A stretch of 63,096 bases of DNA, counting the filler, from Sanchytrium tribonematis (lineage: Eukaryota), in the NCBI GenBank assembly GCA_018985235.1. It is 28 parts of 28 records of this genome, joined end to end, with 100 filler letters (N's around TTAATTAATTAA, not from the genome) between each part and the next. Parts side by side here need not be neighbours in the genome. Positions count along the whole stretch, not along the records: positions 1,225 to 2,347 come from JADGIG010001410.1; positions 2,448 to 3,570 come from JADGIG010001411.1; positions 3,671 to 4,791 come from JADGIG010001412.1; positions 4,892 to 6,007 come from JADGIG010001413.1; positions 6,108 to 7,222 come from JADGIG010001414.1; positions 7,323 to 8,437 come from JADGIG010001415.1; positions 8,538 to 9,647 come from JADGIG010001416.1; positions 9,748 to 10,855 come from JADGIG010001417.1; 20 more parts are not named here. The stretch is one strand, 5' to 3'. A program made the position numbers and the translations under genes. The notes beneath the pieces were generated by a model. That model did no database searches. It was given only the letters and a program-made list of their open reading frames with translations, and had not been told where the DNA came from. Every line of letters begins with the position of its first letter. The first letter of the stretch is position 1. Positions 1,225 to 59,608 of this stretch are shown piece by piece.

Positions 1225-2054
1225 AAAAATCCGTCACCTTAATTTGAGAAGGTTGTCTTGACATAAGGTCTGAGCGGACACCGGGATTAGAATGAATAAA
1301 TGAAATATCGTGCGACATGAACTAAATAAGTTTGAAATACAAGATCGTGCATAGTTTCTCGCGAGTCTATTTCAATATTTTCGAAAAATTTCAAGGTACT
1401 ATATGTCCATCTATCTATGACAGCTACTCCTATTTCATCGGAATTATCATAACTGTAACTATTTTCATCTTTCTCGCTAGACCCAGTACTTAAAACATTT
1501 GGAGAGTATATATATTTATACATCGTGTTTGCCTGACACGTGTCAATCATAAATAAAATTTCCTTATATCTTTTACGATCGAACATTTGAGCAAATGAAT
1601 CAGCAAGATCTTTTGACGTCAACTCCTCATAATCTTGAAATTTAAGAAAGCCGTCTCCACCGTGCCCGGTCAAATACACTAGTATTCTAGACTGATCGTC
1701 GGTTCTCAATTGTTTTGATATTGGCATGTTCTTAGTTCGACCTGTTAGAACTCTCAAAAAGTTATCAACATTCGCTTCATAACCTCGGTAGTCTACTTCG
1801 ACATCAGACCCATAAAGATTCGTTGATCGTTTGCCGTCATTATACACCGTACCTGGAAATGTATTCCTAGCATTGCAGCTAGAATCTTCTGCCAACATTA
1901 ATATAATCTGATTATCTGGAATACCCAACTTCTTAATTGTATGATAAATGCTAAGAGTGTTTGCTGTATGTCTGTAATTAAACCAAAATCGAGATGTACA
2001 TACCAATACAGCCCAATTATTGTGAGCCAAGAGGAGGGATAAAATAGATATCAT
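1225..2054 (-). CDS. GPI8: GPI-anchor transamidase catalytic subunit (peptidase C13), 3' partial, with a 19-nt intron at 1322-1340
   Basis: NNWAVLVCTSRFWFNYRH, TGHGGDGFLKFQD, DTCQA. After splicing it continues HDL|FMSHDISFIHSNPGVRSDLMSRQPSQIKVTDF, the expected downstream GPI8 segment. Confidence 0.97.
1322..1340 (-). other. 19-nt spliceosomal intron GTATTTCAAACTTATTTAG
   Basis: Removal restores the conserved GPI8 frame. Confidence 0.93.
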
Positions 2055-2155
2055 TTCTCCGAGTTTCTCAACAATTATAAAAACCTACAACATTTTGCAC
2101 ATGAAATTAATAATAATACTAGCGATCAATCCATTTGCTAATTTAAATCATTTAT

Positions 2156-2347
2156 TCATTTCTTCTTGACATTAAAATTACCAAAAGGATTGTTTGACAT
2201 ATTATCAGCAAAAGGATTTTGTGAAAATCCACCAGTCTGCATAGGCATTTGAGGAGTACCCTGTGTTGACAGCGAGGGATCTGCAAAAGGATTAGAAATA
2301 TTCTGCTGAGAAGGCTAAATAAGTTAAAAGTACCTGTGCTATATAAT
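2156..2347 (-). CDS. C-terminal fragment of an NPF-repeat endocytic adaptor (epsin/AP180-like tail), 19-nt intron at 2315-2333
   Basis: Not in the ORF track. Reads YIAQ|PSQQNISNPFADPSLSTQGTPQMPMQTGGFSQNPFADNMSNNPFGNFNVKKK*, with three NPF motifs. Confidence 0.65.
2315..2333 (-). other. 19-nt intron GTACTTTTAACTTATTTAG
   Basis: CAG|GT...AG; matches the window-wide consensus and joins onto the NPF frame. Confidence 0.8.
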
Positions 2348-2447
2348 NNNNNNNNNNNNNNNNNNNNNNNNNNNNNNNNNNNNNNNNNNNNTTAATTAAT
2401 TAANNNNNNNNNNNNNNNNNNNNNNNNNNNNNNNNNNNNNNNNNNNN

Positions 2448-3192
2448 CAGGAATTGCAACTTCAAGGCAATTATTTGAGTGGTCCATTTCCTATGTTTCC
2501 TGTTACTTTAAATAGCATTGTACTTGGTGATAAAGTCAAAGAAGGTAATTCATTTAATGACAAGTTGATTTTACAACAGCCGCTGTCAATTATTTTGGGA
2601 AATACAAATATTTATGATGTATTATTTCAAAACACGAGTTCATTAACAAATTGTGACTTGTCATTTAATCCGCTATTAAATAGTACCAATATTGGCAATT
2701 ATACAATGTGCAAACAATATTATTTGACTCCAAAAATAGGCAAATTACTAATTGGCTCTGCTGTTTCAAGTTTTACTACTAAATATACAACTATTTCAAG
2801 TTTTACAGCAATGTCTGTTGTCTCTACTATCAGTTCGTCTCCCACAACTACTGTAGAGCAAGATCATACATTAGAATTTACTGAAATTGACTCAAAATCA
2901 AGTAATTTACATTTATTTAGTTGTTACACGTATATTTTATAAAACCACCAGCAAAGTGTCAAATAATTCAGATTCAACTCTAAATAATGATTGGAATGAA
3001 TCATCAACATCCACAAACTCAATGACACTCTCTAAAATTCATTATAATGTCAAATTATTTGAAATTAATTGGAATTGGCAAATGATTACACGATTAGAAA
3101 TCAGTCTTTTACTGATTGTAAGTTTATTAACTCGTTTGACAGTTTTAAAAAGAAGAAAAACAACAAAAAAGCCTCAATCTTTCACAATTTAA
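2448..3192 (+). CDS. LRR cell-surface protein, C-terminal part (LRRs, Ser/Thr stalk, TM helix, basic tail), 19-nt intron at 2902-2920
   Basis: LQGNYLSGPFP, CDLSFNPL, S/T-rich linker, hydrophobic ISLLLIVSLL then KRRK. The two track ORFs join as DSKS-I-VTRIFY. Confidence 0.8.
2902..2920 (+). other. 19-nt intron GTAATTTACATTTATTTAG
   Basis: Joins ORFs 2454-2942 and 2887-3192 in frame; fits the consensus. Confidence 0.85.
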
Positions 3193-3204
3193 GTAAAATA
3201 TTGT

Positions 3205-56365: not shown

Positions 56366-56504
56366 TTATTTATAAAATAAATATATTCTATACAACTTGC
56401 AAATGTAAAATTCAATTCTGAACTTTCGATATTTTATTTGTCTCGATTTACAAAAAACGCGATTTGATTAGCGTTGAAAGCAAACGAAGCCATTTTCTGA
56501 AAAA

Positions 56505-57261
56505 ATGTCAGGAAATAGAGCTTGTGGATCTTGCGGTAAAGTTGTTTATTTTGTAGAAGAGTTAAAAGCGAATAATGTGCTTTTCCATAAACATTGCTTT
56601 AAGTGTGCTCATTGTAATTCAGTAATAATGATTTATATAGACTATAACTCTTGGAAGCTTTGCTGCTGCCAATGGGCAGTTCTACTGTAAACCACACTAC
56701 CAACAACTATTCAAGAGCGTTGGAGGTAAATACTCCTTGGAAAACAAAAAAAATCAAGAAATATTACCAAATTTATCATCTACCAGATCGCGAGAATTAG
56801 CTGCCCCAATAAGTAGACCATCTCTAGAGTTGACTTCAGATTCCAAGAAGGAGTCAGACCAGCCCGGTAGCTCTCAAGATCTTCGAACAAGAATAAAACA
56901 ATATCAAGAAGCAATCAGTAAATCAAACGAAAGTATCAAAGCGACTGAAAATGTCCATCGTTCGAAATCCAGTGAACGATTGGAAAAACAAACAACCAAA
57001 CCAAGAAGTCAGAGTGTCACATCTTCTGCTGCGATGTTGAATTCTGGTATAGATAAAGTCAGCAACAACAGTTTATCTGATGGGGTTGATAGAAGAAAAT
57101 CCATACGACTCAAGGAAAAGTTAAAGACACCCGAACCTTCAATTGGAAATTTATTTTCTGAAAGTCCCACGGAACTATATAAATTATCCCAGGACAGTAA
57201 CAAAAATATACATCAAACTGCGCAGACATTAACTTCAGTAATAAATGAGGAGGAGATCTCA
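56505..57261 (+). CDS. LIM-domain protein with Ser-rich tail, 3' partial, 19-nt intron at 56622-56640
   Basis: [47 protein letters not shown]. Confidence 0.9.
56622..56640 (+). other. 19-nt intron GTAATAATGATTTATATAG
   Basis: Restores LIM spacing identical to the adjacent intron-less LIM paralog. Confidence 0.95.
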
Positions 57262-57421
57262 NNNNNNNNNNNNNNNNNNNNNNNNNNNNNNNNNNNNNNN
57301 NNNNNTTAATTAATTAANNNNNNNNNNNNNNNNNNNNNNNNNNNNNNNNNNNNNNNNNNNNAATTAAATGCTGCCGCTTTGCATTTTGAGTATACATAAA
57401 TCGTCATAAAAAATCAATCCA

Positions 57422-58435
57422 TCAGAGAGCTAAGAAATGTTTTACCAAACACTCCAGGTGATATTGGATTGTTCTCAAATCACAAATCAATAAAGTATCA
57501 TCAAATTTGATGGTGACATCCAACACCAGATTATTATGTATAAACAATGCAGCAGGGCGTAAAAATGTCAAATTGCCACTCATGAAATTATCATTGAAAT
57601 AAATCGTAGTTCCTGTAAATGAGGCATCTGTGCAGCCACTTATTTGATTATAAGATATATCTAAGGTTGTAGCTGTGGCTATAGTTTTTGGAATATTGCC
57701 AGTTAATAAATTGTGAGACACATTTAAAAATACCAAATTTGACCAATTCGGGATCTCACCAATAAGATAGTGACTAGATAAATCAAGAGATGTGACTGTA
57801 TTAGGTATGTTATATGTCGATTTAATGGATTGTTACTAAAGTAAAAGCCATTTATATTTAAAGGAAATGATTTTGGGAATTTCTTGAATTGGTTTGAACT
57901 CAAATACAAATTTGTAATGGTCATATAGCTTAAATCAATCTCACCACTCAATTGGTTATTTGAAAAATCAACATAGAATGCGAACTGCTCTTTAAAGTTG
58001 GTAAATTTCCTGTAAATAAATTCCATGAAAAATCAACTTTTGAAGATAGGGTGCTAGAGATATTTGGAATTATACCAGTAAGCATATTATGGGACACTGA
58101 TAATGTGACTAGTCCTACTGGCCAATTAGCAGATAGATCGCCTGTTAATTGATTAAATCCTACTTGGAAAGTTTTCATTAAACTTGGAATATTTGGCAAA
58201 TTACCATTAAATTGATTGTTTTCAAGGTTCAAATCGGTAATTATAGATGTCAGAGATGGTATTGGTCCATATATTTGATTAATATTGCCATATATCTTGC
58301 TCAAACCAAAAAGGAATAAATTTGGAAATTTACCAAAAATCAAATTATTAGAGATATCTAAATACTGCAGATTGGTCGGAAAGAGTGGCATTTTGACAAG
58401 TCCAATTTGGTAATACCATCAGGGAATGAGGCAGG
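57422..58435 (-). pseudogene. LRR surface-protein pseudogene
   Basis: LRR periodicity switches frame three times (near 57990, 57810 and 57475) with no GT-AG intron at the junctions. Confidence 0.75.
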
Positions 58436-58535
58436 NNNNNNNNNNNNNNNNNNNNNNNNNNNNNNNNNNNNNNNNNNNNTTAATTAATTAANNNNNNNNN
58501 NNNNNNNNNNNNNNNNNNNNNNNNNNNNNNNNNNN

Positions 58536-59608
58536 ATTCGATAAAAACTCCTGATTTAGGGTACCCAGACTTCCAAAATTTGCGAATGACTGCTCAAATA
58601 AGGACGAGTCAAAGGTGTTTTCAACAGGTTCCTTTTCTGTGTTTTTTTCTTCCCCGTAGCCTTTAGGTCTTGGCAATTTCATTTGCGATACCTTCATATT
58701 ATTTAATGGACCTTCGACCAAAAGGCTCTTTTCGCGAAAATGACCGATAAGATGATACCATAAAGAATTCTTCGCCAACACTCTGGGGTTTCCAACAATA
58801 ATAAGTCCGAATTTGGACCGAGTAATTGCCACATTCAATCTACGAGGATCTCTCAAGAATCCGATTCCTTGCTTTTCATTAGATCTGACACACGTTAAAA
58901 TAATATAATCTTTTTCCCGACCTTGAAAAGAATCCACGCTGGCAATTTCAATTTTTGAAAGATCGTCGCGACTAATCGATCCATTGTTCATCATATGTGC
59001 AACTAGAAAAGCTCTTTGTCCTTCATACGGTGTAATAATCCCGATTTGATCTGGTAAAATACCTGATTTCATCATTTTTGTTACAATTTTATCAACAATA
59101 CTTGCTTCTGTTCTATTGAGATATGATAGACCAGATCCAGATATTTCTTCTTGGCCTTGGCAGCTAAAAAAGAACATTGGGGAATCGGGATTCGGCCAAG
59201 GAAATTCCTGATTAGCTTGTCTAGCAAACTTTGAAACACCGTTCTGAAGATTGCCCTCGTAAAACATATTGGACGGAAATTCAGACAAGCAAGGATGCAT
59301 TCTGTATTGAATTTGAAGCATAAGAGGCTTGAACCCATTTTTGACAAGTCTTTCGAATAAACTTTGAGTAAGACCTAATTTAGTATAATATACCAGCTTT
59401 AGCTACAGCTTTCGACATTATGACAGGAGGTAATTGCTCATGATCACCAATTAATACAGCACGCTTGCACCCCTTAACCAGAGGAATGAGGCACTCCGGC
59501 TCTGTGGCTTGTGTGGCCTCGTCTATAACTACGGTCTCAAATTGCATCTTATTAAGCCGCAAATCACCAGCACCAACACAAGTACAGCAAATAACATCAG
59601 CTTGTTCT
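58536..59608 (-). CDS. UPF1: Nonsense-mediated decay helicase, internal fragment, 19-nt intron at 59375-59393
   Basis: [68 protein letters not shown]. Confidence 0.96.
59375..59393 (-). other. 19-nt intron GTATATTATACTAAATTAG
   Basis: Interrupts the conserved AGL.QSLFERL. Confidence 0.96.

Follow-up and report, generated by a model that had tools for sequence, protein, structure and literature searches.

How small a spliceosomal intron can become is an open question, and introns of 21 nucleotides (nt) or less have so far come from three distant lineages. Introns measure 15-16 nt in the heterotrich ciliate Stentor coeruleus (PMC9505925), 16-17 nt in mikrocytids, where 217 of 224 have a length of 16 nt (PMC10245619), and 18-21 nt in nucleomorphs (PMC10245619). 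Introns of about 25-36 nt are given for E. cuniculi and of about 30 nt for Rozella (PMC6349667, PMC2483917), with about 25-30 nt as a range for microsporidia and Rozella taken together (PMC6349667), and microsporidia and Rozella form a lineage apart from the sanchytrids (PMC8371127). Introns down to 23 nt are also reported for Trichomonas and 19,375 introns for Blastocladiella, which belongs to the intron-rich sister phylum. Here, we analyzed a 63,096-nt stretch of the genome of Sanchytrium tribonematis (assembly GCA_018985235.1), called the window throughout, in which 28 contigs (60,396 bases, GC content about 33%) are joined by N-padded spacers. Its genes are interrupted by inserts that nearly all measure exactly 19 nt and that are real and very likely spliceosomal, as judged from reading frames, homologues and a fixed branch box. 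We consider, with a probability of about 0.88, that they are ordinary U2-type spliceosomal introns that would have shrunk to a near-minimal workable size in the common ancestor of sanchytrids.

The initial annotation of the window had listed twelve frame breaks on 7 different contigs, each mended by the removal of 19 nt bounded by GT..AG. Both counts were reproduced: a 19-nt GTA...YAG segment is present on the coding strand at 12 of 12 sites, spread over 7 contigs, and excision of each 19-mer generates a single open frame over the junction. A 21-nt intron had been named as the only other one; it was located and contains an in-frame stop codon, but a further, 13th 19-mer at 10034-10052 had been missed. 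The accepted introns therefore amount to 14 (13 of 19 nt and one of 21 nt; about 0.23 per kb over 60.4 kb), all of which have the GT...AG termini of U2-type introns, and if the inserts are left in, the frame terminates after 1-30 codons at 14 of 14 sites. Contigs from run X1 span three of the 14 sites (16563, 22947 and 26250) with no gaps and no joints; run X1 probably derives from the same raw data as the assembly and this bridging thus checks the assembly only.

Table 1. Short introns accepted in the window, and the gene used for placing the organism.
Feature	Position	Strand	Evidence
19-nt intron, phase 0, GPI8 (peptidase C13)	1322..1340	-	ungapped junction in 110/119 homologues; same site and decoded length in A. 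gromovi P0395 and ENA P0393; P0394 without it
19-nt intron, phase 0, NPF-repeat gene at contig end	2315..2333	-	motif and frame only
19-nt intron, phase 1, Ser/Thr-rich gene	2902..2920	+	motif and frame; 151 codons upstream, 90 downstream
19-nt intron, phase 2, leucine-rich repeat (LRR) gene	10034..10052	-	unbiased finder; T-8/A-6 hold-out fit; 246 + 96 codons joined
19-nt intron, phase 0, gamma-COP	16563..16581	-	ungapped in 116/119 homologues; relatives' open reading frames end at the same column
19-nt intron, phase 2, COX19-like CHCH gene	22947..22965	+	CHCH profile 1-35 stops at junction; spliced model runs to stop
19-nt intron, phase 1, Nrd1/Seb1-like gene	26250..26268	+	RRM upstream, Nrd1-Seb1 domain 2 downstream; canonical ACTAAC box
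19-nt intron, phase 0, Helicase_C gene	31165..31183	-	motif and frame; 179 + 162 codons
19-nt intron, phase 1, inside kinesin P-loop	40560..40578	-	removal restores P-loop, unbroken in 125/150 matches
19-nt intron, phase 1, RhoGEF gene	48072..48090	+	motif and frame; tandem AGs permit cuts of 22, 25 and 28 nt
19-nt intron, phase 0, gene without Pfam match	51207..51225	-	CTGAC box motif and frame; 202 + 220 codons
19-nt intron, phase 0, inside LIM domain	56622..56640	+	exons match LIM profile 1-33 and 39-58
19-nt intron, phase 1, UPF1	59375..59393	-	exons match 2xzo_A residues 318-387 and 389-621; residue 388 is encoded by the split codon
21-nt intron with in-frame stop, phase 2, helicase gene	60395..60415	+	228 + 62 codons joined; downstream exon Cys-rich
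MPP-beta gene, intron-less, used for organism placement	53080..54399	-	72% identity to A. gromovi P0003

Homologues pin five of the junctions (GPI8, gamma-COP, kinesin, UPF1 and LIM) with zero gaps, and the earlier statement that invariant motifs fix the boundaries was borne out at the kinesin P-loop, UPF1 and LIM junctions, which were matched without spare residues. In the LIM domain, five residues lie between the two profile matches, which is exactly the gap in the profile. The ungapped block in gamma-COP surrounds the spliced junction, and of the nine homologues that lack such a block in GPI8, two are truncated sanchytrid open reading frames (ORFs). Near the GPI8 site, the 19-nt cut is the sole in-frame GT..AG choice, whereas longer in-frame cuts exist at most of the other sites and a 16-nt alternative exists at 26250. 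The remaining nine junctions are based on frame and motif, one of them with partial domain support; for 10034, 26250, 31165, 48072, 51207 and 60395, other in-frame GT..AG cuts are possible. These six are among the weakest sites, together with 2315, where the upstream exon comprises four codons before the contig ends, and 2902, where the host gene is of low complexity, the upstream exon gave no match in a Pfam search and a gene finder unbiased for length (see below) made no call. No match was obtained for the downstream exon of the COX19-like gene when searched alone, nor in a Pfam search for the Cys-rich downstream exon of the helicase gene with the 21-nt intron, which we take to be RTEL1-like. 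The frameshifting intron at 59375-59393 resides in the gene for UPF1, the decay factor expected to clear unspliced messages.

Alignment of the 13 19-mers yielded the consensus GTAWTT-NNN-AYTNAY-WYAG, with the donor at positions 1-6, free bases at 7-9, an AYTNAY box at 10-15 and WYAG at 16-19. Seven columns are invariant in 13 of 13 (G1, T2, A3, T12, A14, A18 and G19), and three are nearly so (A10 in 11, Y11 in 12, Y15 in 12). T at -8 together with A at -6 was encountered in 12 of 12 sites; among GTA..YAG pairs of other lengths taken as background, 274 of 2999 have it (P about 3e-13, or about 4e-10 once the freedom to pick two columns and their letters is allowed for). These columns had played no part in the selection of the twelve sites, and the 13th site at 10034, which serves as a hold-out, also fits. 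The box agrees with WCTRAYN, the branch consensus of intron-poor eukaryotes as given in PMC2483917, and with T12 and A14 in 13 of 13 the introns carry what would be a branch adenosine in a U2-complementary box ahead of the AG. In contrast to the extended donor consensus, a G at +5 is absent from 14 of 14 donors in the window, and all four donors deduced for relatives lack it too. When counted from the donor, T12 and A14 are present in the 21-mer too, a single hint that donor-to-branch distance may be the fixed quantity, although a branch at A15 is equally compatible. U12-type introns possess a long conserved donor, RTATCCTT, and a TCCTTAAC-type branch; this type was rejected for the 19-mers, as their donor columns 4-8 read W T T followed by variable bases and not TCCTT.

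In order to examine intron length, we employed a gene finder restricted to the GT..AG rule, with a flat length prior from 10 to 120 nt. It returned 24 calls, nine of them of 19 nt and at most two of any other length; eight of the earlier twelve sites were found exactly, one end was shared at 22947, 48072 and 56622, and 2902 was missed. The 64-nt cut proposed at 56622 was dropped in favour of 19 nt on the colinearity of the LIM domain, and the 77-nt cut at 22947 and the 25-nt cut at 48072 were dropped on the motif. Several of the 15 calls of other lengths (16-104 nt) span adjacent genes or frameshifts in LRR genes. At a length of 19 nt, the window contains 15 occurrences of the motif GTA-N(n)-TNANNYAG, and on average 3.1 (maximum 10) at each of the other lengths from 12 to 100 (Poisson P of 1e-6, but the motif was derived from these very sites). 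Two of these 19-nt matches, at 2761 (-) and 28075 (+), were regarded as chance, being antisense to genes and joining only short frames. Similarly, a splice-site matrix trained on the same sites gave 26 matches with lengths of up to 60 and scores of at least 14, of which 13 have 19 nt and no other length accounts for more than two. Two further candidates, of 21 nt at 9194-9214 and of 20 nt within 38021-38061, were not accepted because of poor motif scores. The region 8538-9647 (-) contains a broken ORF for which cuts of 16, 21 and 94 nt are possible, all poor fits to the motif.

The lineage that the initial annotation had called fungus-like was identified as Sanchytriomycota. The best named match was Amoeboradix gromovi for four genes (MPP-beta 72%, gamma-COP 52%, kinesin 58%, GPI8 88%); MPP-beta is also 73% identical to ENA protein P0002, and its next best named match reaches 41%. 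A gamma-COP tree united A. gromovi, two ENA proteins and the window (SH-aLRT 100) and joined these four with Blastocladiomycota (99), the window branching as the sister of the other three; this tree comprises 27 chosen rows of one gene from a quick search, with compositional bias flagged. The placement agrees with the published position of Sanchytriomycota (PMC8371127), and the organism belongs to this phylum and groups with A. gromovi.

According to the same source, the published sanchytrid gene lists were made with no intron models; the A. gromovi proteome was obtained with TransDecoder on genomic contigs, so that its ORFs read through introns (PMC8371127). The gamma-COP ORFs of A. gromovi (P0124) and of ENA P0123 end at the junction found in the window with a V-I-stop tail, which is compatible with a GTNATH donor and gives no intron length, whereas the P0122 ORF continues through the junction and has no intron. 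For GPI8, we asked at which intron length between 12 and 30 the tail peptide could encode the exon that follows, with the intron-less P0394 as reference and the window's own tail as positive control. In A. gromovi P0395, only 19 nt scored at least 8 and four of four exon residues were recovered, and in ENA P0393, 19 nt scored 77 with a runner-up of 16. For both tails 19 nt was still the best length when an AG was not required, and in either case none of 200 shuffled tails scored as high as the observed one. Both peptides force A10, A14, Y15 and a base other than G at +5, and that of A. gromovi forces ACNAAY and an AAG acceptor. A 19-nt GPI8 intron with the same branch A thus appears to recur at the same site in two relatives, and at least one 19-nt intron, as decoded from these peptides, is common to sanchytrids. 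Given the sister position of the window in the gamma-COP tree, the shared introns would span the deepest sampled sanchytrid split. An arthropod gamma-COP model ends at the column of the gamma-COP junction, with V next, a hint that this intron position may be old. Seven proteins from ENA/NCBI (P0002, P0122, P0123, P0241, P0244, P0393 and P0394) are close to A. gromovi and indicate that public assemblies contain more uncultured sanchytrid-like genomes, usable for intron comparison. Metagenome scans gave 394 pattern matches with the MPP-beta alignment, none confirmed as a relative, and 80 loci with the GPI8 alignment, with identities of up to 64% and none sanchytrid-like.

If these inserts are spliced as U2-type introns, U2 snRNA would pair with bases 10-15, leaving A14 bulged, and the attack of A14 on G1 would produce a lariat ring of 14 nt and a tail of 5 nt. 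The acceptor would be the first AG past the branch, since a pyrimidine tract would not fit. A lower bound on length would arise from the need to accommodate the two helices formed at donor and branch, and further deletion would make them collide because they would be only 2-3 bases apart; deletion bias would erode the slack from above, as in the threshold model of PMC10245619. With a length of 3n+1, an unspliced message would be frameshifted and a probable target of nonsense-mediated decay; the sole 3n intron (21 nt) contains a stop. The annotation of A. gromovi includes Prp8, Brr2, a U2AF subunit, cactin and Dbr1 (PMC8371127, supplement 4), and the C-terminal domain of cactin, a spliceosomal factor, is encoded in the window at 28230-28940 (+). 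An Rfam search of the window detected only a tRNA and no snRNA.

Spliceosomal identity had already been proposed in the initial annotation, and the fixed branch box, the colinearity with homologues and the same-length intron decoded in two relatives argue for it; among the sequence features of U2-type introns that were compared, the +5 G is the single one that the inserts lack. The wording "fixed-length" and "across the genome" fared less well: 13 of 14 introns do have 19 nt, but the statement was extrapolated from 60 kb and longer introns are possible. The introns may be real with 19 nt as no more than a mode, a sizeable longer or stop-free 3n class being hidden by the frame-break method and the small sample. 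The one 21-nt intron, the 15 unconfirmed calls of 16-104 nt, in-frame motif matches of 15 nt at 47705 and 24 nt at 12746 and the 18-21 nt range given for nucleomorphs in PMC10245619 speak for this. The single peak of the matrix matches (with the matrix trained on the same sites) speaks against it, as do four proteins aligned to relatives, in which neither intron-like insertions nor stop-free introns of 18 or 21 nt were seen. We regard this alternative as unlikely; it fits alongside U2-type introns shrunk in a sanchytrid ancestor and would narrow only the term "fixed-length". Several points weigh against the interpretation that we prefer. The sample comprises 60 kb and 14 introns, the check for stop-free introns covers four genes, and the 15 unconfirmed calls of other lengths made by the unbiased finder may include some real longer introns. 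In relatives, the length is available for one intron, decoded from peptides and not from DNA, and the A. gromovi tail yields four exon residues. Ancestry of the positions leans on the single arthropod hint, and 80 of 80 other GPI8 loci are intron-less at the site, in a ranking that favoured unbroken genes. Nor are the introns shared uniformly: the kinesin intron is missing in A. gromovi P0243 and ENA P0244, both contiguous, while P0122 has lost or never had that of gamma-COP and P0394 that of GPI8, absences that for ENA proteins depend on how the genes were called.

This patchy occurrence, in which each of three introns is missing in some relative, would also be expected if the 19-mers were recent mobile-element insertions, introner-like elements or transposon footprints, that can be spliced by accident, and a uniform length is typical of introner-type families. 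We consider this improbable, since the interiors are unrelated and not near-identical as in introner families (mean identity of 52% and maximum of 77% over positions 4-16, the sequence being A/T-rich), no target duplication of the introner kind is apparent in the 4-base flanks, the gamma-COP and GPI8 sites are shared over the deepest sampled split and would therefore be old, and intron loss explains the patchiness equally well. Removal or skipping of the inserts without a spliceosome, by IRE1/tRNA-ligase splicing, ribosomal bypassing or frameshifting, or DNA excision, might be suspected because the inserts are very short and HAC1/XBP1 introns measure about 19-29 nt. IRE1-type introns, however, are cut at CNG/CNG in two stem-loops of HAC1/XBP1 mRNA, whereas the inserts lie in 14 unrelated genes, have GT..AG ends, with a branch box at a set position in all 13 19-mers, and fold weakly, with no stable structure found (-1.1 to -5.8 kcal/mol when 15 bases of flank are included). 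A protein made by frameshifting would gain about six residues at points where homologues leave no room for any, no DNA joint in run X1 skips any of the three covered inserts, and relatives appear to keep a spliceosome, so that we give very little credence to such routes. Assembly or amplification errors, or pseudogenes, are to be considered given that two LRR contigs (57362-58435 and 60873-61936) contain genuine frameshifts that lack the motif. Nevertheless, 13 sites in essential genes with one length and one consensus, gap-free run X1 contigs over three sites and the occurrence of the GPI8 and gamma-COP breaks in other organisms, which contradicts errors, leave this explanation a negligible chance.

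Taken as an ultra-short class with a range of a few bases and at most 21 nt, the set (13 of 14 at 19 nt, one at 21 nt) was read from 60 kb and stands beside the 15 unconfirmed calls; we compared it with the known systems. Stentor and the window have in common U2-type ends, a nearly single length, a GUA start, a branch A six bases before the 3' end and a 5-nt tail, and the commonest U2 intron of Stentor likewise lacks the +5 G, yet ACAGAGA is kept (PMC9505925). Stentor differs as a free-living alveolate with a ring of 10-11 nt, versus a predicted 14 nt in the window, and no strong branch consensus is reported for it, in contrast to the readable fungal AYTNAY box (PMC9505925). Mikrocytids resemble the window in a reduced parasite genome, a dominant length with a rare longer class and conserved sequence, and their threshold-plus-deletion-bias model suits the introns described here (PMC10245619). 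However, they are rhizarians with 224 introns in total, against about 0.23 per kb in the window, and their introns are transcriptome-confirmed; the mikrocytid spliceosome is strongly reduced (PMC10245619). Nucleomorphs, relic green-algal nuclei, share the modal 19 nt and the GT(A) donor. No branch-point signature is reported for them (PMC2483917), while the position of the box is invariant in the window. Microsporidia and Rozella are, like sanchytrids, holomycotan parasites with compact genomes, and E. cuniculi too has a strong branch box close to the acceptor; microsporidian introns differ in being few and variable in length, and they are poorly spliced (PMC6349667, PMC2483917). Myxobolid myxozoans and Dicyema are also parasitic opisthokonts with convergent shortening, published as a record, but their shortest median is 22 nt with reduced motifs, compared to 19 nt and a retained branch box here (PMC13644364). 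As precedents, heterotrichs and nucleomorphs had been correctly named at the outset, and mikrocytids (PMC10245619) as well as microsporidia and Rozella (PMC6349667) had been omitted. The proposed independence from heterotrichs and nucleomorphs in origin follows from established phylogeny, and the same applies to mikrocytids.

Other features of the window were recorded as well. LRR genes are frequent, and those at 57362-58435 and 60873-61936 (-), with several frameshifts and no 19-nt motif, look like members of a multicopy family that were disrupted by small indels, either as pseudogenes or through amplification errors. Two contigs overlap by 501 bases (59709-60209 (+) and 62596-63096 (-)) with 97.4% identity in one helicase gene, and run X1 contigs show many single-base differences; together these point to alleles or a mixed population. 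A stretch of about 1.4 kb (19176-20629) has no long ORF and is probably a repeat or polymorphic element; run X1 contigs there are of raised depth, have loose ends and skip 45 bases. A Helitron-like helicase N-terminal domain at 1-1122 (+) points to a mobile element within this compact genome. A gene at 27024-28127 (-) combines DOMON and cellobiose-dehydrogenase cytochrome-type domains. Flagellar genes of a lineage with a reduced flagellum are represented by a DNAAF11-like axonemal dynein assembly factor (31824-32849 (+)) and a weak IFT122-like propeller (11173-13680 (+)). The tRNA-Leu(AAG) at 36924-37006 (-) is ordinary, with no intron reported.

No report on sanchytrid introns was found among titles and abstracts, a search that left subscription journals, theses and database annotations outside, so that an earlier report is possible; the 19-nt introns are apparently unreported. 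Among fungi and animals, they are likely the shortest intron class that is common, and sanchytrids would add a fourth, independent case, this time within fungi, to the lineages with introns of at most 21 nt. Because a readable branch box is retained, this case can be compared with yeast base by base, and the visible positions of donor, branch and acceptor permit a direct prediction, namely a 14-nt lariat ring and a 5-nt tail. The branch A at -6 in both Stentor and the window points to a possible common floor for the branch-to-AG distance. By extrapolation of the density in the window to published sanchytrid genome sizes of 10.5-11.2 Mb, about 2,500 introns would be expected per genome. Tentatively, and at somewhat less than even odds, the spliceosome may be length-locked throughout Sanchytriomycota, with 14 bases from donor G to branch A and the +5 G contact abandoned. 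If so, about 2,500 19-nt introns per genome would constitute the shortest dominant class in any opisthokont and the only one of this kind to possess a complete fungal branch box. Two of four A. gromovi orthologues retrieved (gamma-COP and GPI8) terminate in intron read-through in a proteome called from ORFs, and gene counts and loss calls for the phylum may therefore be affected; under the same tentative reading, these introns would be missing from published proteomes, and a fresh look at some of the truncations and gene losses reported would be due.

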